Assembly (NCBI GenBank): GCA_018062515.1
Contig: JAGOSC010000005.1
Span: forward strand, 880 to 64,879
From: Candidatus Omnitrophota bacterium
GTDB lineage: Bacteria > Omnitrophota > Gorgyraeia > Zapsychrales > Zapsychraceae
Length of the DNA stretch: 64,000 nucleotides
Direction: 5' to 3'
Position numbers and translations under genes: made by a program. Below the pieces are notes generated by a model. The model made no database searches, was not told the DNA's origin, and saw only the letters and a list, made by a program, of their open reading frames with translations. Below are positions 22,019 to 53,908 of the stretch, piece after piece (position 1 is the first letter of the stretch; the number at the start of each line of letters is the position of its first letter).

Positions 22019-23090
22019 ATGATGATTTTTAAAAGAAATAAAAGAAATTTAACCCGAAAAATAACTTCCACCTTTGTCTTATTTTCATTTATTTTCTCAT
22101 CAATACTACCTCCTCAAGTCTCGGCGCAGAGCGTATTCCATTTACCTATACCTGGGACCCTGTTTAATGTTACAAATACCTTTAATCCTTTTATCATTCA
22201 AGGGCTTACTGTAGATCCGCAAAATCCTCTTCATTTCAGTTTTATTATTGACACCGGCGACACGCAAACAAACGATCCAGACGCTTTCCGCTTAGAATCT
22301 ACAAAACTAGTCAAATATTTCTTAGCATCCTTAACCGTTCCCGAAGATCAAATGTGGGTTAACCTTTCTCCGTATGAAGGCAACCGCATTATTTCGGACA
22401 CATTTGGTCAAACCGAAATGGGCCGTGACTTATTAGCTCAAGATTATATTCTCAAACAAATGTCGGCTTCTTTAACGTATTCAGAAGAAGAATTGGGTGA
22501 AAAATTTTGGCACAGGGTCCACCAACGCGCAAAAAAAGAATACGGCGTTAAAGATATTCCTTTAAATACTTTTAATAAAGTATGGATCATTCCTCAGAAG
22601 GCAACCGTTTATGAACATGACGGCAGCGCGTATGTCGTCAATAGCCGGTTAAAAGTAATGATGGAAGAAGATTACTTAGCCTTAAACAAAAATATCGGTG
22701 AGCAAGCTTTTGGTATGAATAATGTCAAGCAAGATGAGGCGGAATCCACGAGTAAAGTTACTTCCGCCATCATTAAAGAAATTATTATCCCGGAACTCGA
22801 GAAAGAAGTGAATGAAGGCAGCCATTTTGCCAATTTGCGTCAAATTTATCAGTCGATGATTTTAGCGACCTGGTACAAAGTGAATTTAAAAGAATCACTT
22901 TTAGGAAAAGTTTATATTGATCAAAATAAAGTCCAAGGAATTGATTTAAACGACAAAAACGCGAATCAGAAAATTTATGAACAATATTTAGCCGCCTTTA
23001 AAAAAGGTGTTTACAACTATATTAAGGAAGACTACGATTCAGCCACTCATAAGTCAACACCTCGTCAATATTTCGCCGGCGGATTTGTTC
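22019..23090 (+). other. Leader plus shared N-terminal module, copy A (unknown family)
   Basis: MMIFKRNKRNLTRKITSTFVLFSFIFSSILPPQVSA|QS, then LPIPGTLFNV...GLTVDPQNPLHFSFIIDTGD...FLASLTVPEDQMWVNLSPYE...FGQTEMGRDLLAQDYILKQ...NLRQIYQSMILATWYK...AFKKGVYNYIKEDYD...PRQYFAGGF. Colinear with the same region of ORFs B, C and D. Confidence 0.85.
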
Positions 23091-26000
23091 CAAAAACCGA
23101 AGATAATGCGACTTTAGCAGAATTGATCACACGAGAGAAGACCACTCGTTTAGCCGCTACGGATCAGGCAGCTTTAACTCCGAAAGGAAACCAGATTCGA
23201 GCTGATTTCGCTTTATTAGAAGACTTAACCGATGAAGATGCTCCAAAGGTACAAAAACCGATTGAAAAAATTGAAGACGCGCAGATAGCTGTGGACCCTA
23301 ATTGGGTTGAGGACTATTTGGAAAATCTTTTCCCTGAAAACAGCTTTCCTAAACCAGTCAAACAAGAACCAGTCATTATCAGCAAAGAAAGAAAAGAATT
23401 AGAAGACGAATTAATCGCCAATCGTTCTCAATTCTCGGGCTCTAGAATAAATCGGAATATTAAGGAAAAAACAGGGCTTGACGTTCCCGAGGACACTGTC
23501 GATTATTTCGTCGAGCATAGTGGAACCCTCCCTGGATTAAATCACCGTGCTGACCGTTCCCAGGTTATAGGGCAACTTATCCGCAATCATCGTCCTTATG
23601 AAATCTCTAAATTATTTGCCTTATCAGAATCCAAAAATTTTGAAAGAAAATATTATCCTGCCTGGATCCAAGCTTTATCAAAAATATTTACTTTTTTGAA
23701 AGATAAAAATTCAACCATTAATACAGAATTAACCGTTCAAGTCAATTTAGACGGAATTCTTTTAATTAAAGACGGCTCGGGAGAAGAACTCAAGGCGTTT
23801 CAGAAATTGGATCAATTGCACACGGAAAAAGCTTCCGTCGGTGCACTGGCCCTTCAAATTGTCAAATTATTAACCCATGATTACGACGGTTTGGAACTCA
23901 CCAACACTAAAGAATTGTCAGATGATTTAGTATCCATCTTTAATATTTTCGGAATCAAGCCGACGGTGATTAATGATGCGTGGATGCAAACTGTCCTGGG
24001 ATACGGAGATTCTTCATTAAATCTTCAAGCTCTAAAAGAAGGCGTTGAAGTAACTGAAGCTGATGTCGACACTTATCTTTTCCGTCTGGACACAGAAAAA
24101 AGTTTAGCTCGTCAAGCCGGAGAGACTGTATATCTTTCTACGCGCTCAGAAGCCGTCGCTGAAATGATTAAAGAAAATAAATATGATTCTGCTCTTTTAG
24201 CCTCCATCGATGAAAAGGCTTTAACACCGGAAATTCTTACTGCTTTTGGCGGAAATGTAACGGCCGCACAAACGGTCGTGGCCGAGCGTCTTGAGGCTAT
24301 GCGCGTCGCTGATCCGAATGCCACCGTCGAGCAAGCTGTCGCCCGTTTAGCTTGGGAATATAAGCCGCGCGATATTCAAAACGTTTTTCCTGGAGACAAC
24401 TGGAAATTTATGTTTTTGGCCGCCAAAGCCGGCATGAAAGCTCCGATTCTTTTATTAGACTTGGAAGACGCAGTTGCGACAACTCGTAAAGAAATTGCCC
24501 GCGGTGTTATCGTACAATTGATCCGGGCTTTTAAAGGTGAAGGATTAACACAAGATGAATTTGATTTCTTGCAGAAGAACGCGCTTCAGGCTGATGATGA
24601 AAAATATCCGATGACTAGTTTCTTTACACAAAGTCTTGTCGACGGAAAAACTGTTTATACGTTAAATCCTGAAAATCAATTCCATAAAGATCAAATGGTT
24701 CTTTTCCGCCCGAATAATTTAAGAACAAAGTGGTCGGCAGGGGATTATTCTCAAGTTTTTCGTAAAGTCGGTCATTTGGTAGACGGTATTTATATGCCTA
24801 AAGTAGAAGGCCCAGAAGATATCAAAATCGGCGCGTCTATTTTACGCGCCATTCAGAAAGAACAAAACTGGGTCGTTGGTCGTCACAAAATTTTTGTTTT
24901 AACCGAACTTCCCGGCGCTGTTTTGACCGCTGAAAATATTTTAAAAATAGCTCCTGAAGTTGAAGAAGTTCAATTAGGAGTCGTCGATTACACCGCAGCG
25001 ACGGGTGGAAAAAATCAAGTTCAAATCGAACAATTTCCATTTATGCGTTATGCCTTATTACGCTTGGTTGAAGCCGCTAATAATATAGGGAAATCCGCCG
25101 GTTTAGGTATTACCGTTCAATTTACTCCAGAAGCAACAGCCGAGGATACAGTCAAGGCTATTAATATTGGCCTTCATCGCAAATGGAGCGTTCATCCAGC
25201 GCATTTGAAAGGCATGGAATCATTCATCGGAAAATTCCCAAAGATTGTCCGAAAAGATATTCAATATGATGAACTACAAGGATTTGATTTGGTACAGCTA
25301 GATCAATACGCTAGTGAAAGCCGTCCAATTTTAGCTCCTAAAGTTTTAACACCTAAAGATGTGGTTTTATCCAGAGCTGTGGTCACTGTTTCATCCGGAA
25401 ATATTGATGGGCTTAAAAAAGCTCTGGATTCAAATGCTGATACTATTATTTTGGATTTCGGGAAAAAAGAAAATTTGTCTGAAATTAAAAAAATATTAGT
25501 TCAGGCTAAAACAACAAAGAGTATTCTTGTTGTCGATGAGCTTGATTCCCTACAATCAATTAAACAAATTGTAACTGAGTTAAATGGATATTTTCAAGGA
25601 TTTAACCTGAATAACATACAGAATGCATCAACAGTAAGAGATGTGGATGGATTGTTATCAGAAGCAGAAAGTGATTTGGGATTAAACGCAGGCAGCTTAA
25701 AAATTGCCGTCAGCTTTAATGACCCGCAAGTGGTCGAGGAGCAATCCCGCTATCTCGGCACCGATCCAGCTAAAGCTCTTTTGTATTCCAGTCAACGCCT
25801 CAGCTGGGCCATCTTGAATTTGCCTACCATGCCGACTGAAGATTTAGATGATCCGGAAACGAGAGGATACAATTATTATCATTCTTTATTTATTGCCATG
25901 ACCGCTCATGCCGAAGTCGATTCCATCGACGGTTATAGCGCGGATGAGAATTTAACAGAACAAGTTGCGACCTCAGCCATTTGGGGATTTCAAGGAAAAC

Positions 26001-29000
26001 TAGCTAACTTGAATCAAGTTGATGAAATTACTGAAGCCATGAGCCCGCAGCGAGCTGGAATTATGCCAGAATTTTCTACTCCAGAGGAACGTAAAGCTTG
26101 GTTAGCTACTGCCGAAGGAAAAATTTATGTAGCACGTTGGAAAAATTCATTAGAACGAGATTTGGAACTGATGGATCTGTATGCCGAAGCGGATCAAGAA
26201 CGGCAATTAGGTGCGGTAGGTTATAAGGATCCTTTAACCGGCGCTATTGAAATCGTCGACGCTGCTTCAGCTCGAATTCCATTCCGACAATTAGAAAAAG
26301 CTTTAAAGACAAATCAATTAACCGATACGGAAAAAGTTCGATATGCAAAATCACGAGAAAAATTACTTTTAGCCATGCGTCCAGGCGGACGAGAAGGCAG
26401 CGGTGAAAAAGTTTTTGCCGGGCAAAAAATTACAGCTCCGGCCATTGTGATGCGTCCTTGGATGGTTAATGCGTTTGCTAAAGATGGCGATCAAAACCGT
26501 TATCATTTAGATGAAGCTTATGCCAACGCCTCAAAATTTAAAGGATTAGTTGCTCATGGATTATTGACGGTAACTAAGGCTTTAAGTTCTTTAAAAGCTC
26601 AATTACCGGCTTATAAAATTGAAGAAGTCGACGACGCTAAATTCTTAGCTCCTGTACGCTTTAATGATACGATTACCCCGGTCATTGATGTTACGAGTGT
26701 CGACAATGAAAAAGCCAATGTAAAAATTAGTGTAATCAATCAAGACGGAAAAACAGTCAGTGAAATCAAAGTTTTATTAATAGAAAGCACTGATTCTCAA
26801 ATCATTCCAAAAATTAATAATGATTCTTTAAAATCAGCAGAAAAGGTGCCGGCTTCTATTCCGGCCGTCATTTACGATTTTACTGATCCACAAAGTCCTC
26901 GAGAACAAACGTTCAAGCAGGAAATCACATCCAGTTATTTAGAAAATGTTCAAGGATCTAATTTGATTACAAGCCGGGATTTATTAAGTCAATTAGCTGC
27001 CTTTAAAATGATGGCCGGTACTTCCGCCAATGCCGTCCCAGGCCACATATTATTGAATGCAACAAATGTAAAATTCGGAGCTGAAATTCATTTAGGTGAT
27101 GTATTGACCGCCAAAGCTACTGTTCCTGCAGCTGATCAAATTAAATTGACTAAAGACAATCTTCCTAAAGTTCCAGTCACGATTGAAATCACGAATCAAA
27201 ATGGAGAAATGGTTTTAAAAGGACAAGTATTAAAACTCATGGAACCGGGTAAAGATCGAGCGATGCTGGCCAAAAAACCATACCTTCTGCCAAGAGGAAA
27301 AATTGTTACATCGCCGGATGAACTTCCAACACATATGGAAGCATATGTAGTCCGACGCGGTGAGCATGGTGACCCAATTGATGCGTTTAAAAAATCCATT
27401 CAACCCGTTCCCGATGTGGGCGATTATGAAGTCCTTGTCCAAGTTATGGCTGGAGGATTAAATTTTAATGGAACATGGGCCCTTCAAGGTCTTCCCATTT
27501 CTCCATTTACTTATCCTTTGAATAAATTCCACGATGAACAACGCTTAGGTAGTGATGCTTCAGGCATTGTTGTGGCCGTTGGCAAACATGTCACACAATA
27601 TAAAATTGGTGATCAGGTTGTTATGGCTACCGGTGAAGATGACCGCGCTGAAAAAGATCCTGATCATGGCGATACCATGCAAAAACGAACGTTTGTTATC
27701 ACCGGGTATGAAACTCCGGATGGAACGTTCGGTCAATTTGTCGCTTTGGATGAACGTCAAGTACATCCGAAAGAGGCAAATATGACTTGGGAACAAGCCG
27801 CCAGTTATCATTTAGTCGCCGACACAGCTTGGCGAGATATGAAATACAAACTGGGTGTTAAAAAGGGAGATACTGTATTAATCTGGGGGGCATCAACAGG
27901 AGTAGGAGCTTTTAATGTCCAGATCGCTAAATATTTAGGAGCCAAGAATATTGTGGCGGTTGTTTCCAGTGCTTCAAGAGCGGAACAAGCCAGAAAATTC
28001 GGGGCCACTCAAGTGATTAATCGAACTGAACTTCCTAAAATTTTGGGATACAGTGATGCTGAAATTTGGGGTGAACTCTCTAACAATCCCCAAAAGCAGC
28101 AAAAACAAATTGAAATGTTAAATAAGTTCAGAGAATATTTTCTTTCTCTAACGGGTGGTGAATTAGCCGATGCCGTTGCGGAACAAATCGGCCAAACAAC
28201 TTATCCAATTAGTCAATATTTAGCTAAAGATTCCGGAAAAGTCACTCATTTTGCCGGAACATTTGGTTTCAAATTTACCTTTATGGGAAAAGATTTACCG
28301 TTGGATGAGAATACAAAAAAGCAAAAAACGCCACTTCAAATGTTAGAAGAAGCTGGTGTACGCGACGCTAAACGAGTGCTGATATATGGTGCTGATCAAC
28401 TTTCTAAAGAAATTTTTGAGGAAGTTAAAAAATACAGCACTAATATTGCTTTCATCGTTAAAAGCCAAGAAGAACAAAATACAGTCGAAAACTGGGATTT
28501 AGAAAAGACATATATCAAAGGTATTGTAGATTTAAATCCGATTTCTTTTCCTGAAGATATGCCTACACCTCCTCATCCAGACATCCCGGCAGATAAACAG
28601 GCAAAAAATCTTGAAGAATTTAATGAGTATCGTATCAAAGTACTGGATCCAATCCGAGGATCGGTTGTAAAAGCTTTAGGCGGTCAGCCCGACTTAATTG
28701 TTGAAAGAGCGGGGAACAAAAATACTTTGGATATCAGCGTATTTGTCGTGCGTCCTCATGGCGTCGTAACATATGTTGAATCAACAAAAGGAAAACGTTT
28801 AGTCTTTGATGCCCGATTTATTTGGATGTTCCAAAAGCAAATTTATCCTTGGGTTCTTGGGACTCATTATGCGAACCACACACAAACCAAGGAATTAAAT
28901 GATTTAGTTTTAAAAGGCATCATAAGCGTACCTGAACCCGAAGTATTTTCTTGGGATGAATTACCCTTAGCCCAGCAGAAAATGTATGAAAATAAATTAA

Positions 29001-29941
29001 TCGCAACCAAAGCGTCTGTTCTTATCGGAGCTGTTAAACCAGGACTGAAAGGTCTGCCCGAAGAAACTGCGGCAGAACTGCCCATAAAAAACGAAGAGGG
29101 ATTGCTTCCGGCTTTCATGATTACCTCAAAAATCATAGAACCCACCATTTCTGATAATCAAATCAATCTTTATAAGAATCCGGCCATTGATCTATCTGAG
29201 AAATTCGCAATATTAGCTGCTAAATCAAAATTTAAAGACCCAAATAGCGCCCTAGGAATGTATGCCTTGGAAACAAAGGCATTTATACCTGCCATTGTTG
29301 AAAAAGTTTTCGGGAACACGGCGGAATTAGGGGAATTTAAATTAAAGGGGTTTACATCATTTGCTCCTAGCGGATTAGATGCTAATGATCAAATTCGAAC
29401 GACATTGCAAGTAAGCCGCAATTTTAAGATCGACGGGGATGATGTATACCTTAATGCCCGTATATCTTTGGATAAATTTTTTGTCGATTCCGGAAAATGG
29501 AAAGAGTTGTTGGTCGGAAATCAAATACTAAAAATGCCAATTAACGACTTAAACTCTTTAGGTTTTTACTTACCGTCTGAAAAAATTGACTCCGCTTTGA
29601 TTGGAGAAAAAAACGATGTTAGCCTGAATAATAATATCGCTGAATCCAAAAAAGAATACGGCGGTATTGACTTTAATTCAAAATTTTTGAATCTTCAGAT
29701 CAAGCGTGATGGACGAGGAATTCCATTGCCGGTGAATCAGCAGCCATTGATGAACATTCACATCAATGGATTTTATCCGGTTCTCATTGAAACAATGCCG
29801 ATTAATTTACCATTGATTCTCGGTTTAGAGACGGAAGAAGAAGATTCGAATTCAAGAACTCAACAAAGTTCACTTGATCCTTTGCATAAACAAGAAGACA
29901 TACGTATCGAAGATTTAGAAACAGCCAGCATACTAAACTAA
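22019..29941 (+). CDS. Giant fusion protein A (2640 aa): leader + shared N module + 2x CitE/HpcH-like lyase + 2x MaoC hot-dog + crotonyl-CoA carboxylase/reductase-like MDR + shared C module
   Basis: Uninterrupted 7.9-kb ORF in AT-rich DNA. GAGGAA lies 8 nt upstream of the ATG. Domain motifs are listed in the sub-features. Confidence 0.9.
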   Translation: MMIFKRNKRNLTRKITSTFVLFSFIFSSILPPQVSAQSVFHLPIPGTLFNVTNTFNPFIIQGLTVDPQNPLHFSFIIDTGDTQTNDPDAFRLESTKLVKYFLASLTVPEDQMWVNLSPYEGNRIISDTFGQTEMGRDLLAQDYILKQMSASLTYSEEELGEKFWHRVHQRAKKEYGVKDIPLNTFNKVWIIPQKATVYEHDGSAYVVNSRLKVMMEEDYLALNKNIGEQAFGMNNVKQDEAESTSKVTSAIIKEIIIPELEKEVNEGSHFANLRQIYQSMILATWYKVNLKESLLGKVYIDQNKVQGIDLNDKNANQKIYEQYLAAFKKGVYNYIKEDYDSATHKSTPRQYFAGGFVPKTEDNATLAELITREKTTRLAATDQAALTPKGNQIRADFALLEDLTDEDAPKVQKPIEKIEDAQIAVDPNWVEDYLENLFPENSFPKPVKQEPVIISKERKELEDELIANRSQFSGSRINRNIKEKTGLDVPEDTVDYFVEHSGTLPGLNHRADRSQVIGQLIRNHRPYEISKLFALSESKNFERKYYPAWIQALSKIFTFLKDKNSTINTELTVQVNLDGILLIKDGSGEELKAFQKLDQLHTEKASVGALALQIVKLLTHDYDGLELTNTKELSDDLVSIFNIFGIKPTVINDAWMQTVLGYGDSSLNLQALKEGVEVTEADVDTYLFRLDTEKSLARQAGETVYLSTRSEAVAEMIKENKYDSALLASIDEKALTPEILTAFGGNVTAAQTVVAERLEAMRVADPNATVEQAVARLAWEYKPRDIQNVFPGDNWKFMFLAAKAGMKAPILLLDLEDAVATTRKEIARGVIVQLIRAFKGEGLTQDEFDFLQKNALQADDEKYPMTSFFTQSLVDGKTVYTLNPENQFHKDQMVLFRPNNLRTKWSAGDYSQVFRKVGHLVDGIYMPKVEGPEDIKIGASILRAIQKEQNWVVGRHKIFVLTELPGAVLTAENILKIAPEVEEVQLGVVDYTAATGGKNQVQIEQFPFMRYALLRLVEAANNIGKSAGLGITVQFTPEATAEDTVKAINIGLHRKWSVHPAHLKGMESFIGKFPKIVRKDIQYDELQGFDLVQLDQYASESRPILAPKVLTPKDVVLSRAVVTVSSGNIDGLKKALDSNADTIILDFGKKENLSEIKKILVQAKTTKSILVVDELDSLQSIKQIVTELNGYFQGFNLNNIQNASTVRDVDGLLSEAESDLGLNAGSLKIAVSFNDPQVVEEQSRYLGTDPAKALLYSSQRLSWAILNLPTMPTEDLDDPETRGYNYYHSLFIAMTAHAEVDSIDGYSADENLTEQVATSAIWGFQGKLANLNQVDEITEAMSPQRAGIMPEFSTPEERKAWLATAEGKIYVARWKNSLERDLELMDLYAEADQERQLGAVGYKDPLTGAIEIVDAASARIPFRQLEKALKTNQLTDTEKVRYAKSREKLLLAMRPGGREGSGEKVFAGQKITAPAIVMRPWMVNAFAKDGDQNRYHLDEAYANASKFKGLVAHGLLTVTKALSSLKAQLPAYKIEEVDDAKFLAPVRFNDTITPVIDVTSVDNEKANVKISVINQDGKTVSEIKVLLIESTDSQIIPKINNDSLKSAEKVPASIPAVIYDFTDPQSPREQTFKQEITSSYLENVQGSNLITSRDLLSQLAAFKMMAGTSANAVPGHILLNATNVKFGAEIHLGDVLTAKATVPAADQIKLTKDNLPKVPVTIEITNQNGEMVLKGQVLKLMEPGKDRAMLAKKPYLLPRGKIVTSPDELPTHMEAYVVRRGEHGDPIDAFKKSIQPVPDVGDYEVLVQVMAGGLNFNGTWALQGLPISPFTYPLNKFHDEQRLGSDASGIVVAVGKHVTQYKIGDQVVMATGEDDRAEKDPDHGDTMQKRTFVITGYETPDGTFGQFVALDERQVHPKEANMTWEQAASYHLVADTAWRDMKYKLGVKKGDTVLIWGASTGVGAFNVQIAKYLGAKNIVAVVSSASRAEQARKFGATQVINRTELPKILGYSDAEIWGELSNNPQKQQKQIEMLNKFREYFLSLTGGELADAVAEQIGQTTYPISQYLAKDSGKVTHFAGTFGFKFTFMGKDLPLDENTKKQKTPLQMLEEAGVRDAKRVLIYGADQLSKEIFEEVKKYSTNIAFIVKSQEEQNTVENWDLEKTYIKGIVDLNPISFPEDMPTPPHPDIPADKQAKNLEEFNEYRIKVLDPIRGSVVKALGGQPDLIVERAGNKNTLDISVFVVRPHGVVTYVESTKGKRLVFDARFIWMFQKQIYPWVLGTHYANHTQTKELNDLVLKGIISVPEPEVFSWDELPLAQQKMYENKLIATKASVLIGAVKPGLKGLPEETAAELPIKNEEGLLPAFMITSKIIEPTISDNQINLYKNPAIDLSEKFAILAAKSKFKDPNSALGMYALETKAFIPAIVEKVFGNTAELGEFKLKGFTSFAPSGLDANDQIRTTLQVSRNFKIDGDDVYLNARISLDKFFVDSGKWKELLVGNQILKMPINDLNSLGFYLPSEKIDSALIGEKNDVSLNNNIAESKKEYGGIDFNSKFLNLQIKRDGRGIPLPVNQQPLMNIHINGFYPVLIETMPINLPLILGLETEEEDSNSRTQQSSLDPLHKQEDIRIEDLETASILN
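24360..25230 (+). other. CitE/HpcH-family (malyl-CoA lyase / citrate lyase beta-like) domain 1
   Basis: APILLLDLEDAVA, LFRPNNL, IYMPKVEGPEDI, IFVLTELPGAV, LGVVDYTAATGG, WSVHPAHL. This is colinear with CitE-family motifs from memory. Boundaries are approximate. Confidence 0.6.
25350..26060 (+). other. Second, degenerate CitE-like domain
   Basis: SRAVVTVSSGNIDGLKKALDSNADTIILDFGKKEN, where the DLEDAV-type motif is replaced, and later IWGFQGKLANLNQVDEITEAMSP (compare GF.GK..IHP.QV). Boundaries are approximate. Confidence 0.45.
26400..27240 (+). other. Tandem MaoC-like hot-dog (enoyl-CoA hydratase/dehydratase) domains
   Basis: DGDQNRYHLDEAYANASKFKGLVAHGLLT is the MaoC signature D.NP.H.D...A....F...IAHG. 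A second hot-dog-like half follows (...GHILLNATNVKFGAEIHLGDVLTAKATV). Confidence 0.65.
27330..29040 (+). other. Crotonyl-CoA carboxylase/reductase-like medium-chain reductase domain with an internal insertion
   Basis: EVLVQVMAGGLNFNGTWAL, LGSDASGIVVAVGKHVTQYKIGDQVV, ETPDGTFGQFVALDERQVHPK, GDTVLIWGASTGVGAFNVQIAKYLGAKNIVAVVSSASRAEQARKFGA. All are colinear with Ccr-type sequences as I remember them. It is ~120 aa longer than stand-alone Ccr. Confidence 0.65.
29657..29835 (+). other. Shared C-terminal module, copy A
   Basis: YGGIDFNSKFLNLQIKRDGRGIPLPVNQQPLMNIHINGFYPVLIETMPINLPLILGLE, followed by a polar/acidic ~35-aa tail. Confidence 0.85.
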
Positions 29942-29957
29942 TAAGGGACGCAGCTAA

Positions 29958-31000
29958 GTGATTAATCAATTTAAGAAGTTTCAGCCACGATTTGCTTATA
30001 AATTATTCTGTGCGGTCATCAATGTTGCGTTTATTTCAACTTCGGTTCTCCCACCGAGTTATGCTCAGGTTTTACCAACCGCATTTGCATTACCGCAACC
30101 CGGGGCAATGGTTAACCTAACGGAGAAGTTTATGCCGGTCATCGTGCGCGGCATAACCATTCATCCTGAAAATCCGCTTATGTTTGATTTTATGGTGGAT
30201 CAAGGCGACACAACTCTTGATGCGACCGCCCTCAAAAACGAATCGTTAAAACTAATTAAATACTTTCTCGCTTCCTTGACCATTCCAGAAAAGGAAATGT
30301 GGGTCAATCTTTCTCCGACGGAAAAAGATAGAATTATTCCTGATTCGTTTGGAGAAACCGAAATGGGACGGGATCTCTTAGCCCAAGATTATGTTCTCAA
30401 ACAGTTGACGGCCTCTTTGATGTATCCGGAAAAAGAATTAGGCCAAAAATTCTGGCAGCGCGTCCGTGAACGGGCGAAATCCGAATATGGTCTAACAGAT
30501 ATTCCGATGGATACATTTAATAAGGTATGGATTGTGCCTAAATCAGCGGTTGTTTTTGAAGGTAAAAATTCTGCCTTTGTCGTTGAGAGTGAGTTGGACG
30601 TCATGCTTGAAGAAGAGTATTCCCAGTTAGATGGTGTCATCCAGGCTCAAGGTTCCTCGTCGATAAAAAGTAGTTCAGCAAAAGAAATTATTAAAGAAGT
30701 CATTTTACCGGAAATCAAAAAAGAAGTTAACACGGGAGAGACTTTTGCGAATTTGCGTCAGATTTATAATTCCATGATCTTGGCTTCCTGGTATAAAGAT
30801 AATTTAAAAAAGAGTCTTTTAGGACAAGTATACGTCGATCAGAATAAAATACGCGGCATTGATGTTGAGGATAAAAATGTCAAACTAAAGATTTACGACC
30901 AATATATGAAGGCCTTTAAAAAAGGTGTTTACAACTATATAAGAGAAGATTATGACTCAGCATCTAAGAAAATGGTTCCGAGAAGATATTTTTCCGGTGG
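29958..31000 (+). other. Leader plus shared N-terminal module, copy B
   Basis: ..INVAFISTSVLPPSYA|QV, LPQPGAMVNL..GITIHPENPLMFDFMVDQGD..FLASLTIPEKEMWVNLSPTE..FGETEMGRDLLAQDYVLKQ..NLRQIYNSMILASWYK..AFKKGVYNYIREDYD..PRRYFSGG. Confidence 0.85.
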
Positions 31001-34000
31001 GGAAACATTTACAAATTTAAAAATCACTCGCCAGGATATAGATGATTCCGGGATGCTAAGCGCTTCACAAAAAGATGCAATGAATCCGGGTAATACCGAC
31101 GTCATTGTGACAGTAGCGTTAGCTGACTTTGGAAGCAATGTCGATACGACAACTTTAAAACAAGCCGCAAAAGAACTCAATGAAGATCAATCCATGGTTG
31201 GCGAAAATCCTGAGAATAAAAAGGGAATAACCGGAGGATTTTTAACGGACGGCAATTTGGTTGTATATGATAATCCTAAAATTGTCCTTTATCCGGAAAA
31301 TGTTAAAGATCATCCTGATGTCGACACAATGTATCAAATGTTTGAATCCATCTTGGGTCAAAATTCTGAAATTGTACAATCAGTGGGTGAAAGGATTGAC
31401 ACGAAAGAAATTCACGTCGAAGAACCATATGAAGTTACCGTTAACGGGAAAAATGAATCACGAGAAAGTTTAATTAAACAATTAGGCGGTTTAGGTCTTT
31501 TAGGCATGTCGGTACCGGCTGAATATCGAACCGTTGAACTCGGTGGTGATGGTAAAAAGGCCTTCCCTAAAATTGTTAAATCATTGGCGGATAAATGGGC
31601 ATGGTATGGGAACGCGTCTATTGGATCGCTGGTGCGTGTTCATGGCGGCGTGTCTACATTTCCAATTTTAATTTACGGAACGGAAGAACAAAAGAAAAAA
31701 TATTTGCCAAAATTAGCCTCGGGAGAAATGATCGGCGCTTATGCGTTGACGGAATCGAATCATGGGTCTGATACTCTTAATCAGGAAACTGTATTTGATA
31801 CCACCGGGGTTATCGTCGAGCAAGATGGCAAAAAGTATGTAAAAATAAATGGTTCAAAACAATATATTACCAATACACGTTTTGCGGATATTTTCACCGT
31901 GTTTGTGTCTGTCCAAAATCCTGAATGGAATAAGGATCAACCAGACGCAGCCCCACAATGGTTAAAAAGCGTTTTTGTCGTTGAGAAGAAAGATTCCACA
32001 CCGGATACTTTTTCATTTGGACCCGAAATGGAAAAAATTGGGCTTCCCGGATCTGCGACCCAAGAAATATTTTTTAATGATTTACTGATACCGATGGACA
32101 ACCTTTTAGGCAAATTAGGCCAAGGCGATAAAATCGGCATGAGTATTCTTAATTATGGACGATTAGCGATTGGCGCCGGATCTTTAGGCGGAAGCCAACG
32201 TATTCTCGATGAGAGTATACGCTGGATCCTTACTCGTCAGCAATTCGGACATCCCTTGGCCGACTTTAGCGCTGTTCAAACCAATATCGCCGAAATGGAA
32301 GCGAATATTTATGCGATGGAAGCCTTGGTTTATGCCGTCAGCGCGTTATTAGATAACAATGAAGCACCGGGGTTAGAAGCATCAATAGCCAAGGTCTGGG
32401 GGTCCAACACATTTCAGAAAATTGCCCAGATGGGTGTCAATCTGCGTGATGATGAAGGTTTTCTCAAATCAACGCATGTTAACCGCATACTCGGTGATTC
32501 CGTTGTCATGTCTATTTTTGAAGGGGCGAATGAAGTTCTTTCGTCACAGGTCATCGCCGCTTTATCCATGAAATACTTAGACAAAAAAGATAAATTATTA
32601 GGCAGCTGGACAATCCCTCAAGATAGCCCTGTTTACGACGAGAGTTTGCATATAAAACAGGCTGCCGAAACAATTATGCAAGCCAAGGATAAATTGATTA
32701 AAACCTACGGAACGACGTCGGTCTTGCGGGAGCGCGGGAAAGAACATCTTCAAGAATATTTTAATGCATTTGGATTAATGATCGCCGATCTGTACGTATT
32801 AGTGAATACGCTTAATCGAACACATCATTTGCTTTTGTCAAATCCTCAATCACAACATGAAAGGAATTTAGCTAAATTGGTTGTTGAAGAAGGTATTCGT
32901 CGAATCGAAAGCAATGCCGGGCTCATCTTGACTCAGGATGAAATTAAACTAGTTAATCTGGGTACCGAAAGCCCTGTGGAGCTCAAAATACAAGTAGCAA
33001 AACATATTTTAGAGAATAATAAATTTATGACGTGGACCCCTGCGACAGCCACCGACGAAGAAATAGTGAGTACGGAAGGCGCAAAACCGGTATCAACATT
33101 CCTCTTTAGTGGTCAAAAAGGTGAATACCCGGAATCAGCTTTACCATTTATGGAAGATAATGAGCAGTTTGCTGAAGGCCCGATGTACGAAGGTCTTAAA
33201 GAAATTTTCGCGGATATGGTCGTTTCTAAACAGATTAATAAAAATTTGGATGAAGGCCATTTAAAACTCACGCAGATTTGGGACGAACTGAAAGAATTAG
33301 GCCTTTTTGATCCGGAATACTCTACCATTGTAAAAAATTGGGTGAATCAATTTGCGGCATATGCCAGCCCGTCGCTAGGACTTACTTTAGCCGTTCATAA
33401 CGGCGTAGGTTCTATGCCCATTAAACTTTTTGGAAGTGATGCGCAGAAGGAAAAATATTTACCGCTATTTAACTCTGGTGAAAATATCGCGGCCATGGCC
33501 ATCACGGAAAAAGAGCATAACTCAGATATTTATTCTGACAATACGGTATTAGAAACGACCGCCACGCCCATCACCGACGAGAATGGAACGATTGTTTCTT
33601 ACCAAATCAAGGGTTCAAAAGATTATGTGATTAATGCGAGTGACAACAGCATATATATTATCTTAGCTTCGGTTTTGAATGAATCACAAGGAAAACAAAA
33701 ATCTTTATTTATCGTCGAGCATAACGATACTGGAAAAATTTCGGTCACAGAACAAAAAAATAAAATGGGTTTGAGATCAGCTATGACCGCGGTTGTTGAT
33801 TTTAATATCACCGTTCCGGCAGACCGCATGATCGGTGAGGCGGATCAAAGCGATATGATCAACCAAAACATTCAAGGTTATACGTGGACTGCTTTGGGTT
33901 CCATTTATTTAGGCGCCAGTGACATTGCGTTTAAAGAAACTTTAAAGTACGTAACTCAGCGCAAACAATTTTCCTACAAAAAAGATAATGTTTTAAAAAG

Positions 34001-35141
34001 AAAATTCATCGCGGATTTCGGTGCCGTACAAATATCCTTAGCCAACTCAGAAGCCATGTTATACGCCTTGGAATCGATGGTCTATGCTGTCAATGCAGAA
34101 TTTGATAGCGGCCGTAATCCCGTTTTTGAATCAGCTATTTTGAAAGTGATCGGGACAAACACATTCCAGGATATTGCCCGTCAAGGTGTGCAAAAACACG
34201 GCGGCATGGGTTTCGGGCGGGAAACGGAAGTCGCTAAATATTTCGAAGATTCCATCGCACTCGCGCAGATTGGCGGATCAAATAATGTCCTATTAGGTGT
34301 TGTTATCGGCCCCTTGGGATTAACGGCTTTAAAAGAAAATTCCGGCCTGAGCATTTTGGAAAACTGGAATATTCCGGAAGGCCCGTTGACGGATGATGTC
34401 CTTAGAATAAAAGTAGCCGCTAAAACTATTTTGAATATGGTGAGTGAATTTGAAAAACGCGGCATTACGAAAAATAACCCTTCCGCCAGTATATATTTTC
34501 ACCTGCTTGGAGAAATGTTTGTCCAACTCTATGTGATGACCACGACGGTGAACCGCACTCAACATCGTTTAGATAAGGGCATGGATTCTGCGCATGAAAT
34601 TGGTTTAACAAAAACCATTGTCATTGACGGGATACAAAAAATACAAAAATTAGCGCAAGAATTACGTATTTCTGCGCCATCCACGCCATCCCTAAACAGT
34701 GATCAATTGGTGGCCTTGAAAACAGAAATCGCGGAATCAACATTAGAACGCACGACCGATTGGGAAAAACCACAAACAGAAAAAGATATAGCCATGGTGG
34801 CAGAAACCGAAGATCCATACTTGATGAATAAAGCAGATCTCAATACACCGTCGACAAAAGATAAGGTAGGGGGTATTAATTTAGACCGTTCCTTACTGAA
34901 TATGCAAATCCTCCGGGATGAGGGCGGTGTTCCTCTTCCGCTCGACGATCAACCGCTTTTGGAAATGAATATCGAAGGGTTTATTCCGGTGATCATTCAA
35001 ATTACACCGGCTCTAAATGTGCCTTTATTGTTGGGGTTAGCCGGTGAAAAGAAAGATTCAAATTCAAACAGCCAACGCGGTTCGCTAGACCCTTTGCAAA
35101 AAAAAGAGCATATGCTTGTAGAATATGAGGAACGCAGCTAA
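29958..35141 (+). CDS. Giant fusion protein B (1727 aa): leader + shared N module + two acyl-CoA dehydrogenase units + shared C module
   Basis: GTG start 16 nt after the ORF A stop, preceded by AGGGA. 5.2-kb open frame. Motifs are in the sub-features. Confidence 0.88.
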   Translation: MINQFKKFQPRFAYKLFCAVINVAFISTSVLPPSYAQVLPTAFALPQPGAMVNLTEKFMPVIVRGITIHPENPLMFDFMVDQGDTTLDATALKNESLKLIKYFLASLTIPEKEMWVNLSPTEKDRIIPDSFGETEMGRDLLAQDYVLKQLTASLMYPEKELGQKFWQRVRERAKSEYGLTDIPMDTFNKVWIVPKSAVVFEGKNSAFVVESELDVMLEEEYSQLDGVIQAQGSSSIKSSSAKEIIKEVILPEIKKEVNTGETFANLRQIYNSMILASWYKDNLKKSLLGQVYVDQNKIRGIDVEDKNVKLKIYDQYMKAFKKGVYNYIREDYDSASKKMVPRRYFSGGETFTNLKITRQDIDDSGMLSASQKDAMNPGNTDVIVTVALADFGSNVDTTTLKQAAKELNEDQSMVGENPENKKGITGGFLTDGNLVVYDNPKIVLYPENVKDHPDVDTMYQMFESILGQNSEIVQSVGERIDTKEIHVEEPYEVTVNGKNESRESLIKQLGGLGLLGMSVPAEYRTVELGGDGKKAFPKIVKSLADKWAWYGNASIGSLVRVHGGVSTFPILIYGTEEQKKKYLPKLASGEMIGAYALTESNHGSDTLNQETVFDTTGVIVEQDGKKYVKINGSKQYITNTRFADIFTVFVSVQNPEWNKDQPDAAPQWLKSVFVVEKKDSTPDTFSFGPEMEKIGLPGSATQEIFFNDLLIPMDNLLGKLGQGDKIGMSILNYGRLAIGAGSLGGSQRILDESIRWILTRQQFGHPLADFSAVQTNIAEMEANIYAMEALVYAVSALLDNNEAPGLEASIAKVWGSNTFQKIAQMGVNLRDDEGFLKSTHVNRILGDSVVMSIFEGANEVLSSQVIAALSMKYLDKKDKLLGSWTIPQDSPVYDESLHIKQAAETIMQAKDKLIKTYGTTSVLRERGKEHLQEYFNAFGLMIADLYVLVNTLNRTHHLLLSNPQSQHERNLAKLVVEEGIRRIESNAGLILTQDEIKLVNLGTESPVELKIQVAKHILENNKFMTWTPATATDEEIVSTEGAKPVSTFLFSGQKGEYPESALPFMEDNEQFAEGPMYEGLKEIFADMVVSKQINKNLDEGHLKLTQIWDELKELGLFDPEYSTIVKNWVNQFAAYASPSLGLTLAVHNGVGSMPIKLFGSDAQKEKYLPLFNSGENIAAMAITEKEHNSDIYSDNTVLETTATPITDENGTIVSYQIKGSKDYVINASDNSIYIILASVLNESQGKQKSLFIVEHNDTGKISVTEQKNKMGLRSAMTAVVDFNITVPADRMIGEADQSDMINQNIQGYTWTALGSIYLGASDIAFKETLKYVTQRKQFSYKKDNVLKRKFIADFGAVQISLANSEAMLYALESMVYAVNAEFDSGRNPVFESAILKVIGTNTFQDIARQGVQKHGGMGFGRETEVAKYFEDSIALAQIGGSNNVLLGVVIGPLGLTALKENSGLSILENWNIPEGPLTDDVLRIKVAAKTILNMVSEFEKRGITKNNPSASIYFHLLGEMFVQLYVMTTTVNRTQHRLDKGMDSAHEIGLTKTIVIDGIQKIQKLAQELRISAPSTPSLNSDQLVALKTEIAESTLERTTDWEKPQTEKDIAMVAETEDPYLMNKADLNTPSTKDKVGGINLDRSLLNMQILRDEGGVPLPLDDQPLLEMNIEGFIPVIIQITPALNVPLLLGLAGEKKDSNSNSQRGSLDPLQKKEHMLVEYEERS
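31330..32580 (+). other. Acyl-CoA dehydrogenase domain 1
   Basis: LGLLGMSVPAEY, GAYALTESNHGSD, INGSKQYITN, RQQFGHPLADF, IFEGANEV (the Y-E-G-T-type position keeps the Glu). Boundaries are approximate. Confidence 0.7.
33200..34330 (+). other. Acyl-CoA dehydrogenase domain 2 (divergent)
   Basis: ELGLFDPEYS, AAMAITEKEHNSD, IKGSKDYVINA, RKQFSY. The C-terminal motif reads AQIGGSNNV, where ACADs of the MCAD type have Y-E-G-T. Confidence 0.6.
34866..35045 (+). other. Shared C-terminal module, copy B
   Basis: VGGINLDRSLLNMQILRDEGGVPLPLDDQPLLEMNIEGFIPVIIQITPALNVPLLLGLAGE, followed by a polar tail. Confidence 0.85.
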
Positions 35142-36200
35142 GTGATTATTCAGTTTAAAAAATTCCAGTTAAAATTTACCTATAAATTTCTTTGTACGGT
35201 TATCAATATTGCGTTTATCTCGACTTGTGTTCTACCGCCGAGCTATGCTCAGGTTTTATCTTTACCCCAACCTGGAACCATGCTGAATGTAAGCCCGGTT
35301 TATACTCCGCCCATGATCAAAGGACTGACCATTGATCAAGAAAACCCGCTGCATTTTCAATTTATTATTGATACTGGAAATGAACAATATAAAGATAATG
35401 ATCAGCTTCGAGAAGAATCAACACGCTTAATTAAATATTTCCTTGCTTCGTTAACAGTTCCTGAAAATGAAATGTGGGTGAACCTTTCACCCCATGAAAA
35501 AGACCGCATTATTCCCGACGGGTTCGGCCAAACCGAAATGGGCCGTGACCTTTTAGCCCAGGATTATATTTTAAAACAACTCACCGCGTCATTGATTTAT
35601 CCTGAAAAAGAATTAGGGGCTGAGTTTTGGAAAAAAGTGCATGACCGCGCTTGGAAAGAATTTAAAACAAAAGAAATTCCATTGGATACATTTAATAAGG
35701 TTTGGATTGTTCCGGAAAAAGCAGTGATTTATGAACATGAAAGAAGCGCTTATGTTCTGGAAAGTCATTTAAAGGTCATGTTGGAAGAAGATTATCAAGC
35801 ACTTATATCCAATACTTCGTCGACATCCGCGGACAATCAAAAATTAAAAGATGATAATCGGCAACTGACAGCGTCGATCATGAAAGAAATTATTATTCCG
35901 GAAATCGAACGGGAAGTTAATGAAGGTAAAAATTTCACAAATCTACGCCAAATTTACCAGTCGATGATTTTAGCGACGTGGTACAAGATGAACTTAAAAG
36001 AGTCATTACTTGGACAAATTTACGTCGATCAGAATAAACTCATAGGGATTGATCTCGACGATAAGAATGTTAAAGACAAAATTTACGCGCAGTATATAGA
36101 AGCCTTTAAAAAAGGTGTTTATAACTATATCAAAGAAGATTATGATCCTGACCAGCAAAAGACCGTTCCTCGTCAATACATTTCGGGCGGTTTCTCGACG
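35142..36200 (+). other. Leader plus shared N-terminal module, copy C
   Basis: ..INIAFISTCVLPPSYA|QV, LPQPGTMLNV..GLTIDQENPLHFQFIIDTGN..FLASLTVPENEMWVNLSPHE..FGQTEMGRDLLAQDYILKQ..NLRQIYQSMILATWYK..AFKKGVYNYIKEDYD..PRQYISGGF. Confidence 0.85.
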
Positions 36201-39200
36201 GTAGGAAAAGATAACGCAACGCTCGTTGATCTCGTTGGCCGAGAAATCATTAAGTCCAGCGCCGGCTATGTGAGCGCGGATCAATATAAACGTATTTCCA
36301 AAGGACTTAAACCCAGCGGTGATCAATTCAGAACAGATGTTCAATTATTAGAAAACGGAAATAATGGAATTATTAACGCCGATCAATCCATGCTGGTTAA
36401 GATCGACGATGCTTTACAAAAAAATCCTTCTCAAAAAGTTCATACGGTTAAAGGATACACACCGGCTGGAAATCCAATTGAAGATGTTCTTACATATCAG
36501 GATATCAGCGACCAATCCAATCAATTTGCCCATGTATTAAAAAATGCGGGGATTGAAAAAGGCGACCGTGTGGCTGTTATGTCGCCGGTCTCAGGTTTGG
36601 AAATGATCGCGTCTTTGGGAATTTGGAAAGCCGGGGCAGTACGTGTACCGTTTAAAACCCAATGGACGTCGAATGAAATTAAAAAATATTTGACCCAAAC
36701 CACGCCTGAAGCGATGGTTATTCTAAATGTGTATTACGATCAACATTTATTGTCAATTTTAAATGAATTTAAAGATTTAAAAGTTTATATCATTTCTTCC
36801 GGCGAAACTATTTCTTCAACACCTCACGTCATGACTTTTCAAAATAGTTTAATCAATCAAACAACGGATTTCTTAAATATTTCTTCCGATCCGAGGGATT
36901 TAGTCCAATTGGCTATTTCCACCGGAACAACCGGTGAATCAAAAATTGTAAAGCAAACACAAGAAAACTTTTATTTCAGTACGCAAGAGTATAGTGAGTG
37001 GCTTGATGATGCTCCTCAAGGCCCTGTCGTCAGCACTTTACCGCCGGGAACGTACGGAAGCCATAGTATTTTAGGAACTGTTCTGCGAGGACGTCCGTTA
37101 TATATCGTTCCCCGTTTACCCAAAAATCAAACGACCGATGAATATACCCAGACATTATCGGAAACATTGAAGAGAACAAACGCGAAAATTTTATTCGGCG
37201 TTCCAACGCAATTTCAGGCTTTAGCCATGACGGGAGAAAAATTCCCCGGCCTTATTGGTTTAAGCCGAGGAGCCGCGTTAAGAGATGTAAAACAATTATT
37301 TGAGTCGGTGACCGGAGGACGGGTTATCGAAGGTTATGGATTGACAGAAGGAACCAGTTCAGTCACCAATCCGATTAATAGAGATAAGCCGGGTACCGTC
37401 GGAATTCCGTCAAAAGATACGACATTTAAAGTCATTAATCCATCCACGCAAAAAGAACTTCCCATTGGTGAAGAAGGTGAATTAGTGTTAAAAGGCCCGC
37501 AGGTTATGGCCGGATATTGGGAAGATCCTGTGGGCACTAAAGCCGCTTTTACAGAAGATGGATTTTTAAGGACCGGCGATTTGGGCTCCATCGACAAAGA
37601 TGGTTATATAAAAATCACCGGCCGCTTAAAAGACATTATTATTTCCGGCGGTGATAATGTCATTCCGTCGGAGGTAGAAAAAATTATTAAAACCAACGCC
37701 GCTATCGAAGAAGTTACCGTCGTCGGTATAAGTGATCCTGGCCGTTTTCCTGATGATCCGGCATTTGCTGAGCTCGTTGAACATTGGGGGGAAGTTGTTG
37801 TCGCGTTTGTCGTCCCGAAAAAGGGCATGAATACTTTAAATTTAGAGCCATCCATACGAGAATTTGCCAAAAAGAATTTGGCTGCTTATAAAGTCCCCAA
37901 AAAAGTTGTTGTCCTCAATAAACTGCCTCTGCTAGGAGACCTTTTTAAAATTGACCGTCAACAACTCATCCGAGGCGACAATGACAATGCTGTTTTAGTT
38001 ATTCCTTCAGCCATCAAGAATATAGAAAATATAAAAGCCAAATTAGTGTTAAATTTTATGATAAATGAGACTTTAAGAAATGGTTTAATTTCCCAAATTG
38101 ATGGCGAAAAACTTATTCCTTCTGTGGCCATTGATGATGAACAAATAACAGTTGCAAAAAAAGTCAGCGATGAAGAATATGAACTATCCGGAACGAAGGC
38201 GGCTGTTGTCAATGGAGGCCGGGCTTCTTTTTATATTGTATTTGCGCAGCTCAACGGAAAATCAAAAGCGTTCTTAGTCGACAATCCAAAAGGGATAACC
38301 AAAAAATCTGTTCCCACCATGGGCTTGGCTGAAAATAATATTGCTCAAGTTCAGTTTAACCGTGTTAGAGCCAAACTCATCACTGATAATTTAGACGATT
38401 CCGAAATACTTAAAGCTGTACAAAATAAAGAAAATAAAATCATTCGAGCCCTGGCTATTTCCGAAGCCCAAAGGATATATAAAATGGGCGAGAAATATGC
38501 CGCCGAAAGACGCGCCTTTGGACAATCCATCAATAAATTCCCATCTTTAAAACGATTAATGGATGGTATTCAAACGGATGTAGAAAACATCAATGCATCC
38601 CCGAATCCAACCGCCATGCTGGTTGATATAGCCAACCGTGTCCTTCAAATTTTTGCGGCGCGCGGATTTGAAAATAATACGCCGGCTGTAAAAATCTGGC
38701 GTGAGGCACAGGCCCTACATGCCATTGTCACTTATCGGCAATCTTTAACAAAAACAACTCCGGAAAACATATCTCTTGACCCTGAAGAGGTATTTAAAAA
38801 AGGTTCATGGGAAGATTTTGGATTAACACCGGATCAGATTTCTCTAAAATCGAAAATTCGCAATTTTGCGGAAAATATCGTCGCGCCAATGTATGAAGAG
38901 CTTGATCGTGATGGACAGTATCCGCTTTCTATATTGAAGAAAATGGGGGATGCCGGCATTACAAAACCCGGTTATCCAAAAGAAGTTGGCGGTGAAGAAG
39001 CTGACACATTAAGCTGGGCCATCGTCGTCGAGGAACTGGTTAAAGCGGCTCCGGCCTTCGGTATATTTTCCGGTGTTCCGCACACGGCTTCCGTTCCAAT
39101 TCTCAAATCCGGCACTCCCGAACAGAAAGAAATTGTCGCGCAAGTTGTCCGCGGAGAAATTCCTCTATCTTACGGACAGAGCGAACCTCACAGCGGATCG

Positions 39201-45560: not shown

Positions 45561-45566
45561 TAAACC

Positions 45567-46600
45567 ATGAAAAAGAAAATTTTCCTTATGAAAAAGTTTG
45601 TGTCTATATTAATTCTTTGCGCATTTACAATGAACACCATTGTTCCGCCGAGTTTGGCGCAGAGCATATCGTCAACGATCCTACCGCCGGTAGGTTCAAT
45701 GCTAACCATGACACCATCGTTTGTTCCGATACAAATCAAGGGTCTAACCATCGATCCCGAAAATCCTTTGCATTTTGAATTTATCATCGATACCGGCGAT
45801 TCAAAAATTGTAAACGATGAAGAATTGCGCGCCGAAACAACAAAACTGGTTAAATATTTTCTTACATCGCTGACCGTTCCGGAAGAAGATATGTGGGTCA
45901 ATCTTTCTCCTTATGAAGGAAATCGTATTGTTACCGACGGATTCGGACAAACGCAAATGGGTCAGGATCTCTTAGCGCAAGATTATATTCTAAAACAAAT
46001 CACCGCATCATTAATGTTCCCTGAAAAAGAGTTGGGCAAAAAGTTCTGGGATAAAATTTATCAGAGAGCAGAACAAGAATACGGAACTAAAGATATTCCA
46101 ACGAATACATTTAATAAAGTATGGATCATTCCGGAAAAAGCCACGGTTTATGAGCATGACGGCAGTGTTTTTGTTATCGAAAGCCGTTTAAAGGTTTTAT
46201 TGGAAGAAGATTATTTTGCCCAAAGAAAATCTGAAGGAGCCTCCGTCGATCCAAATAAATCTGTGTATACCGACATCGTTCGAGAAATTTTAATTCCGGA
46301 GATTGAAAAAGAAGTCAATGAAGGACAGCATTTTGCCAAACTGCGTCAAATTTATAATGCGATGATCTTAGCGACTTGGTATAAAACCAATCTGCAAAAA
46401 TCCGTCTTAGGACAAATTTATGTTGATCAAAATAAGTTGGAAGGCATTAACGGCGAGAATAAAAACGCTAAGTCAGATATTTATAATCAATATCTCAAGG
46501 CTTTTAAGGCCGGCGTTTATAACTATATTAAAGAAGACTATGATTCGACAACTCGGTCAACGATTCCCCGACAGTACTTCTCCGGTGGATTTGCCGCTAC
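45567..46600 (+). other. Leader plus shared N-terminal module, copy D
   Basis: MKKKIFLMKKFVSILILCAFTMNTIVPPSLA|QS, LPPVGSMLTM..GLTIDPENPLHFEFIIDTGD..FLTSLTVPEEDMWVNLSPYE..FGQTQMGQDLLAQDYILKQ..KLRQIYNAMILATWYK..AFKAGVYNYIKEDYD..PRQYFSGGF. Confidence 0.85.
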
Positions 46601-53840: not shown

Positions 53841-53869
53841 TTGACGATGTGTACAATATCAATTATATT
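53841..53869 (+). promoter_or_regulatory. Candidate sigma70 promoter for the serpin gene
   Basis: TTGACG (53841-53846), 17-nt spacer, TATATT (53864-53869). This argues against the GTG 53849 start given in the ORF track. Confidence 0.4.
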
Positions 53870-53908
53870 ATTTACACATATCCACGGTCTAAACGCTTAA
53901 AAAAATTC

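Follow-up and report, generated by a model that had tools for sequence, protein, structure and literature searches.

The four giant open reading frames (ORFs) described here, G1 to G4, lie head to tail on the plus strand at positions 22019-52088 of a 64-kb stretch of DNA from a metagenome-assembled genome (MAG) of Candidatus Omnitrophota; we refer to this whole stretch as the window. Each ORF begins with a short leader, basic and then hydrophobic, in front of cofactor-dependent enzymes of cytoplasmic types. Taking the route and the destination together, we lean towards reading the leader as a genuine cleavable Sec-type signal, processed by signal peptidase I (SPase I), which opens an export cassette whose cargo most plausibly works in the cytoplasm-like milieu of a host or prey cell. 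The parts of this statement differ in strength. Sequence features make it probable that the giant cassette proteins are exported and built for life outside the cytoplasm of the producer, while action of the exported enzymes in prey- or host-derived cytoplasm is our leading guess and a tentative one. The original prediction set an uncleaved anchor or internal sorting signal against true export and noted that either would be unusual. That framing holds, and the evidence leans towards export through the leader features, a step in cysteine content, and the normal cysteine content of leaderless paralogues. What had been overlooked is that the leader opens a conserved cassette, and that the proteins built on this cassette form a family numbering in the thousands which, where the organism is named, comes almost entirely from Omnitrophota.

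G1 (22019-29941, 2640 aa) is deposited as MBP9853540.1 under the name 'zinc-binding dehydrogenase' and is followed by G2 (29958-35141, 1727 aa), G3 (35142-45560, 3472 aa), and G4 (45567-52088, 2173 aa; deposited as MBP9853543.1). Lengths of 1727-3472 aa fit the 190-390 kDa previously quoted for these proteins. An in-frame stop lies 1 or 2 codons before each start, so none of the four leaders can begin further upstream. The G1 start, with its stop immediately upstream, is preceded at 7-8 nt by the Shine-Dalgarno (SD)-like sequence GAGAGGAAA. G2 and G3 both start with GTG; the G2 start directly follows an in-frame stop and has AAGGGA ~10 nt upstream, and the G3 start comes directly after the G2 stop codon, with GAGGAA ~9 nt upstream. 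No clear SD was found upstream of G4, where an alternative start at Met-8 would still retain the hydrophobic core. The most decisive start-codon evidence comes from the protein level, at which the leader is retained in ~100 of the best 120 homologues. The original prediction would fall if the true start codons lay downstream of the hydrophobic segment; we checked this and found against it, with stops, SD-like sites, and family conservation together fixing the starts.

The G1 leader (22019-22126) has the sequence MMIFKRNKRNLTRKITSTFVLFSFIFSSILPPQVSA and is followed by QS. The span first noted for it corresponds exactly to residues 1-36 and ends at the Ala before the proposed cut. Its basic n-region and hydrophobic core run into the site PPQVSA-cut-Q. 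The leaders of G2 (29958-30065) and G3 (35142-35249) end in VLPPSYA before QV, and that of G4 (45567-45659) ends in IVPPSLA before QS. In all four, as quoted earlier, basic residues come first and are followed by the hydrophobic core and prolines; the site itself has the form (S/V)xA-cut-Q.

Leader statistics were collected from 103 aligned family members. Relative to the predicted cut, position -1 is Ala in 97/103 (94%) and Gly in 4/103, position -3 is V/S/A/G/T in 91/103 (88%), and position -2 is bulky, mostly Tyr, Phe, Gln, or His. Pro predominates at -6 to -4; the first residue after the cut (+1) is Gln in 96/103 (93%) and Cys in 0/103. Net charge in the n-region reaches +2 or more in 93% of members, with a median of +3, the uncharged stretch made up of core and c-region has a median length of 22 residues, and the next 20 residues have a net charge of 0. 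Because positive charge stands before the core and none after it, an N-in/C-out orientation is predicted. Within the window the cores are ~15-16 residues long and Ser/Thr-rich. The Tat consensus (S/T-R-R-x-F-L-K) occurs in 0/103 leaders, only 17 of which have any RR, and a loose lipobox pattern matches 1/103, with +1 never Cys. No internal membrane-spanning segment is predicted in G1-G4, the only other hydrophobic patch being a proline-rich motif in the C-terminal domain. Judged by its residues, the leader carries every feature tested that would mark a cleavable Sec/SPase I signal.

Two further observations concern the junctions between these genes. G2, G3, and G4 occupy one reading frame with stop codons between them, as TAA-GTG (35139-35144) and as TAA TAA followed by one codon and ATG (45558-45569). 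We considered in-frame, stop-only spacing (readthrough) as a family trait and rejected it, since 15 of 40 adjacent family pairs share a frame, which is the chance level. The sequence ACGCAGCTAAGTGATTA, which combines SD and start, occurs at both the G1/G2 (29944-29965) and G2/G3 (35128-35149) junctions. The G2 and G3 leaders are near-identical, and this suggests recent duplication or gene conversion.

The strongest sequence-level argument that these proteins may be exported, also overlooked in the original prediction, is their exclusion of cysteine. Mature G1-G4 contain 0 Cys in ~9,870 residues, and what Cys the giants have is confined to the leaders of G2 (1), G3 (2), and G4. At the rate of the 23 other ORFs in the window (0.90% Cys), ~89 would be expected in mature G1-G4 (Poisson P ~1e-39). 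The same pattern holds across 79 cassette loci, in which family ORFs have 0.058% Cys (114/195,928 residues) and 72 of 127 are Cys-free, compared with 1.08% in 342 neighbouring non-family ORFs. A globally low cysteine content is rejected as an explanation by these same-locus controls. By a crude classifier, signal-peptide-like neighbours have 0.69% Cys and cytosol-like neighbours 1.21%; the family is far more Cys-poor than ordinary exported proteins of the same genomes. The change is abrupt. The last 25 leader residues contain 2.37% Cys (61/2,574), and the N-terminal domain directly after the predicted cut contains 0.012% (4/32,785), a 200-fold step located at the predicted cleavage site. A leaderless acyl-CoA dehydrogenase and acyl-CoA synthetase from related loci have 1.0% and 2.4% Cys, respectively, whereas the cassette-borne versions have 0-1 Cys in thousands of residues. 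Exported proteins are known to adapt by excluding cysteine (PMC2823432), and autotransporter passengers likewise carry few cysteines (PMC9769942).

Each of G1-G4 has the same layout, consisting of the leader, an N-domain of ~320 aa, a variable cargo, a C-domain of ~56 aa, and an acidic or polar tail of 30-37 aa. Within the window, hidden Markov model (HMM) search finds the cassette domains in G1-G4 only. The N-domains start directly after the leader, at 22127-23083 in G1 (residues 37-355), 30066-31001 in G2, 35250-36191 in G3, and 45660-46589 in G4, and show 47-52% mutual identity. They form a conserved N-terminal cap, and a strongly conserved motif, LNLPxPGTM, stands directly after the leader. 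At the other end, the C-domains of the four proteins share the consensus GGIDLN..L.LQIKRDG.G.PLP...GF.PVII.ITP..NLPLLLG. The C-domain of G1 (29660-29827; GGIDFN...IKRDGRGIPLP...GFYPVLIETMPINLPLILGL) is supported by the alignment, by an HMM match at the extreme C-terminus, and by its family-wide pairing with the N-domain; the acidic/polar tail and stop codon of G1 follow at 29828-29941. The C-domains of G2 (34869-35039), G3 (45300-45467), and G4 (51816-51986) are likewise followed by a tail, acidic in G3, and a stop codon, so that these terminal segments span 34869-35141, 45300-45560, and 51816-52088.

A motif of the form (L/V)-S-x-(L/I)-N-COOH ends about a quarter of family members (e.g. in loci L004 and L009) and may be a recognition tag. 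In the window it is present in G1 (...SILN, 29927-29938) and G3 (...SYLN, 45546-45557).

We found at least 592 cassette loci in a scan of one genome per species, with several per genome and often in tandem. Nearly all are in Omnitrophota MAGs and some are labelled 'uncultured Planctomycetales'; where records name the organism, the cassette family is almost always from Omnitrophota. Among the 79 loci, the N-domain was found in 113 ORFs, the C-domain in 94, and both in 80, in proteins of 784 to >3,700 aa. Nearly all intact ORFs (i.e. those not cut by a contig or locus end and not split by a frameshift) have the N-domain at the N-terminus and the C-domain no more than ~90 residues from the C-terminus, usually within 50. 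A profile search of 1.84 billion cluster representatives (50% identity) returned 8,408 clusters at E<=0.001, of which 6,804 reach E<=1e-30. The best 150 of the 8,408 representatives, which are 420 to 5,312 aa long, nearly all have one N-domain only, and in these 150 it occupies residues 1-370 or thereabouts. Searching for the C-domain with a 74-sequence alignment gave 211 matches, mostly short fragments, and a single-sequence query gave only 3 (word index). We also considered whether very large Omnitrophota ORFs might be concatenated cassettes. This was rejected, as there were 0 multi-cassette ORFs in the 79 loci and nearly all of the best 150 representatives have a single N-domain.

Neither the N-domain nor the C-domain has a Pfam or NCBIfam match, and the C-terminal 130 aa are unmatched in NCBIfam even at E up to 1. 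The AlphaFold2 model of the N-domain is an alpha/beta fold, with the leader modelled as one long helix, and comparison of the N-domain model with PDB folds gave no match. Three family members come close to lacking cargo, with ~100-200 residues between N- and C-domain: P0043 (549 aa), P0046 (623 aa), and P0054 (603 aa). These would be useful minimal constructs for structural or secretion experiments. The P0043 model has a predicted local distance difference test (pLDDT) score of 67.9 overall and ~60-87 in the C-domain.

In G1-G4 the cargo is enzymatic. That it keeps cofactor motifs, as had been proposed, is borne out by GASTGVGA in the Ccr-like module of G1, by DGHDVGA (DxHxxG) in the B12 domain of G3, and by the Pfam AMP-binding and acyl-CoA dehydrogenase domains. 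The cargo of G1 (23084-29659; 0 Cys) comprises an HpcH/HpaI lyase-like domain, a MaoC hydratase, and the Ccr-like reductase module (Pfam ADH_N/ADH_zinc_N). In the PDB, this reductase matches crotonyl-CoA carboxylase/reductase (Ccr; 4gi2, E 3.7e-68) and also the fused propionyl-CoA synthase 6eqo; the matches of the HpcH lyase are weak and of malyl-CoA-lyase type (E 1e-5). G2 (cargo at 31002-34868) has two acyl-CoA dehydrogenase modules by Pfam, which are VLCAD/ACAD9-type by PDB matches, and its only Cys is in the leader. The cargo of G3 (36192-45299) comprises an AMP-binding acyl-CoA synthetase, acyl-CoA dehydrogenase module(s), a methylmalonyl-CoA-mutase-type mutase, and a B12-binding domain. 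The best match of the mutase is methylmalonyl-CoA mutase (MCM), both human and bacterial (E ~1e-104), with the B12 domain aligned and DxHxxG kept. G4 carries a carboxyltransferase (ACCA / Carboxyl_trans) and a cyclic-nucleotide-binding domain (Pfam cNMP-binding) at 46590-51815.

Judging from domain families, the cargo of G1-G4 reads as one CoA-ester pathway that would resemble the ethylmalonyl-CoA route together with beta-oxidation-type dehydrogenases. Its parts would be a synthetase, dehydrogenases, a hydratase, Ccr, a B12 mutase, the weakly matched HpcH lyase, and a carboxyltransferase. The cargo also looks catalytically intact. The Ccr-like module of G1 is interrupted, relative to crystallised Ccr, by an insertion of ~170 aa (28283-28798, residues ~2089-2260); it aligns along the reductase part of 6eqo.

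Related cargo is present in other cassette loci of Omnitrophota. Locus L011 (9135-20276) encodes a double acyl-CoA dehydrogenase 39% identical to that of G2, and in L013 (1-9915) a carboxyltransferase 46% identical to that of G4 is found in the same protein as a mutase. Modules are shuffled between cassettes, because similar CoA-pathway cargo is distributed differently among the genes of other Omnitrophota. Elsewhere in the family, cargo of cytoplasmic type is again found, with PGK, PGM, UDP-glucose pyrophosphorylase, NUDIX, GT2 glycosyltransferase, methyltransferase, and response-regulator receivers. CofD and repeats of the HEAT and ankyrin kinds also occur, and in many members no cargo domain can be recognised. 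We saw no typical extracellular hydrolase as cargo in the family members sampled.

In the mechanism we favor, the chain would be threaded unfolded through SecYEG and cut after (S/V/A/G)-x-Ala, leaving an N-terminal Gln. The mature chain would never live in the cytoplasm of the producer, which would be why it has been purged of cysteine. The two caps would then serve as shared handles for a common step after Sec, in which the protein may cross the outer membrane, be fixed to the cell surface or coat, or be handed over to a partner cell. The cargo would work either once transferred into the host or prey, or where the predator-prey junction stands open, as described for Ca. Velamenicoccus. A cytoplasm-like milieu of host or prey is the most plausible setting because the cargo needs ATP, CoA, NADPH, FAD, and B12. 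We guess at prey or host cytoplasm in particular because the enzymes look intact and need these cofactors, and because Omnitrophota are ultra-small epibionts or predators (PMC10066038).

Several points weigh against this account. From sequence we infer that the leader is cleaved and the proteins exported, and likewise what the caps do and where the enzymes act. The leader, at a median of 36 aa, is long. The role of the caps is a guess, given that they have no family match and the N-domain no solved fold. No secretion or transporter gene is a consistent neighbour of the cassette, the best cluster being found in 6 of 79 loci, and we found neither a release protease nor any recognisable domain for translocation. 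Because chains pass through Sec unfolded, FAD and B12 would need to be loaded outside the cytoplasm; we know of no mechanism for this. Nor do we know of a case in which a complete CoA pathway is delivered into another cell. Lastly, an oxidative reason for cysteine exclusion is not obvious, because most Omnitrophota live without oxygen.

If the proteins are exported, thousands of Omnitrophota proteins annotated by one cargo domain (e.g. G1) would not be ordinary cytoplasmic enzymes, and metabolic reconstructions of Omnitrophota that count cassette proteins would be misleading. The caps, with no family model and, for the N-domain, no solved fold, would point to an undescribed step after Sec. More speculatively, and with clear doubt, Omnitrophota may export metabolic blocks as Cys-free capped giants that run in the host or prey or in the open junction, with the caps as the handles of a new delivery or anchoring route. 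An ultra-small cell would in that case leave its bulky metabolism to run in the victim's cytoplasm. The family offers testable handles on such host exploitation, namely a defined leader after which the mature chain is predicted to begin with Gln, two signature domains, and a Cys signature that separates exported from resident paralogues.

We weighed four other explanations. The enzymes may be sorted into a compartment of the producer itself, either an enlarged or active periplasm or an internal membrane-bounded space, that supplies ATP, CoA esters, and NADPH. A Sec-type leader and cysteine exclusion fit any non-cytoplasmic space, and cargo that forms a coherent pathway suggests joint work in one place. 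Omnitrophota are related to the Planctomycetes-Verrucomicrobia-Chlamydiae (PVC) group, whose anammox bacteria use signal peptides to direct enzymes into an internal organelle. We nevertheless consider this explanation improbable, as no CoA-ester or nucleotide transporter is linked to the 79 loci, the window holds no compartment-related genes, and no such compartment is reported for Omnitrophota in PMC10066038 or PMC13153191.

An equally small chance falls to exported proteins of a surface coat or of adhesion, in which the enzyme-like modules would be scaffolds or binding domains, or would work without their classical cofactors. Giant proteins of Omnitrophota have been proposed to form a surface coat or to act in adhesion or cell-wall attack (PMC10066038; 10.1101/2023.11.21.568195). 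The many members without a recognisable cargo domain and the HEAT and ankyrin repeats among the cargo would suit this role. However, the cofactor motifs are kept and full-domain similarity is high (3.7e-68 for Ccr, ~1e-104 for MCM with DxHxxG), the four genes together look like a single pathway, and other species conserve similar cargo. Motif retention and the conservation of pathway-like cargo across species argue for selection on catalysis, and no loss of catalytic residues was seen across orthologues.

Slightly less credible still is an uncleaved membrane tether, by which the leader would stay in the inner membrane and hold the enzymes on the cytoplasmic side, within reach of their cofactors. 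Every cargo domain is of a cytoplasmic type that depends on cofactors, the leader is modelled as one long helix, and a 2026 preprint reads many long Omnitrophota proteins as membrane-anchored with cytoplasmic domains (10.64898/2026.06.07.730766). The distribution of charge around the core predicts the opposite, N-in/C-out orientation, and the short Ser/Thr-rich core is followed by Pro-Pro and a strongly conserved small-x-Ala-cut-Gln site that would be superfluous for an anchor. A cytoplasmic location also gives no reason for a 200-fold drop in Cys exactly at that site, and leaderless paralogues have a normal Cys content. An annotation artefact, with the true starts downstream of the hydrophobic segment and no leader made, would suit the GTG starts of G2 and G3 and the unclear SD of G4 and can be practically dismissed, since 103 diverged homologues retain the charge and hydrophobicity of the leader as well as its cleavage-site pattern, SD-like sites precede G1-G3, and the N-domain profile including the leader aligns from residue 1 or near it in the best 150 of 8,408 representatives.

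Other genes of the window were also recorded. Its housekeeping enzymes, including homoserine dehydrogenase, threonine synthase, ValRS, LeuA, and phosphoglycerate mutase, are leaderless and plain. A phage-type integrase (930-2012) lies at the start of the window, and a homologue of SUI1-type translation factors (52781-53143) is found just downstream of the giant genes. A bacterial serpin (53849-55177; Pfam Serpin, E 2.8e-127) has its own signal-peptide-like leader, with 1 of its 3 Cys outside the leader. An HTTM / vitamin-K-dependent gamma-carboxylase-like membrane protein (59502-61166) is adjoined by a PIG-L-type deacetylase (61172-62569) with a signal-peptide-like leader and 0 Cys in 465 aa.

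Finally, we compared the cassette with known systems. Its leaders share with classical Sec/SPase I signals the tripartite layout, the charged n-region, the uncharged hydrophobic core, helix-breaking Pro, and a bulky -2 residue between small ones at -3 and -1. They differ in being long, in a near-invariant Gln at +1, in the LNLPxPGTM motif and dedicated domain that come next, and in their passengers, which are cofactor enzymes of 190-390 kDa. Two-partner secretion (TPS; type Vb, e.g. FHA, ShlA, and CdiA) is similar in its Sec leader, its conserved N-proximal domain, and its very long, variable, Cys-poor passengers. Type Vb passengers, like those of autotransporters, carry few cysteines. Unlike these proteins, the cassette has no TPS (haemagglutination-activity) domain by Pfam, its N-domain is modelled as alpha/beta rather than as a beta-helix, and it has an extra C-terminal cap; no TpsB-like neighbour was found among the 79 loci. 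The beta-barrel of ~250-300 aa of autotransporters (type Va) is absent, the C-domain having ~56 aa and no Pfam match.

MARTX toxins have conserved ends that flank variable enzymatic modules acting in the cytoplasm of another cell, and they leave by type I secretion with no Sec leader. The design logic of conserved ends around variable enzymatic modules is alike. The cassette proteins differ in lacking glycine-rich repeat arms or RtxA-type domains and a cysteine-protease domain (Pfam), in having a Sec leader, and in a cargo that is metabolic, not toxic. Cargo of the type IX secretion system (T9SS), which is a system of Bacteroidota, also combines an N-terminal Sec signal with a small conserved domain at the extreme C-terminus. 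No T9SS/Por-type C-terminal domain was matched in the cassette proteins (Pfam, NCBIfam), in which an acidic tail follows the ~56-aa C-domain. As a fused CoA-pathway enzyme, propionyl-CoA synthase (6eqo) likewise holds several CoA-ester enzymes in one polypeptide, and the G1 reductase aligns with it. Propionyl-CoA synthase is cytoplasmic, without leader or caps.

The closest comparison within the phylum is with the Omnitrophota giants ('archaeovorins'), which have overlapping phosphoglucomutase, HEAT, NUDIX, HAD, HATPase, and response-regulator domains (10.1101/2023.11.21.568195; 10.64898/2026.06.07.730766). The cassette proteins have 0.8-5.3 thousand residues, not 10-147 thousand, contain a single cassette, and lack internal membrane helices. 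Omnitrophota proteins of at least 10 thousand residues combine signal peptides or membrane helices with metabolic domains, and the metabolic content of one protein of 147,155 aa was concluded to face outward (10.64898/2026.06.07.730766). The paradox of metabolic domains behind a signal peptide is therefore not wholly new, because this 2026 preprint notes the same and West-Roberts et al. list overlapping domain types for the giants (10.1101/2023.11.21.568195). We found no description of the capped family of 1-5 thousand residues, of its size, or of its Cys step in the papers that we consulted. As far as sequence allows, the leader itself is ordinary, the tested homology features that define TPS, T9SS, and MARTX are absent, and the cassette would be a secreted modular family with conserved trafficking ends. 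There is a substantial chance that this family points to something unprecedented.

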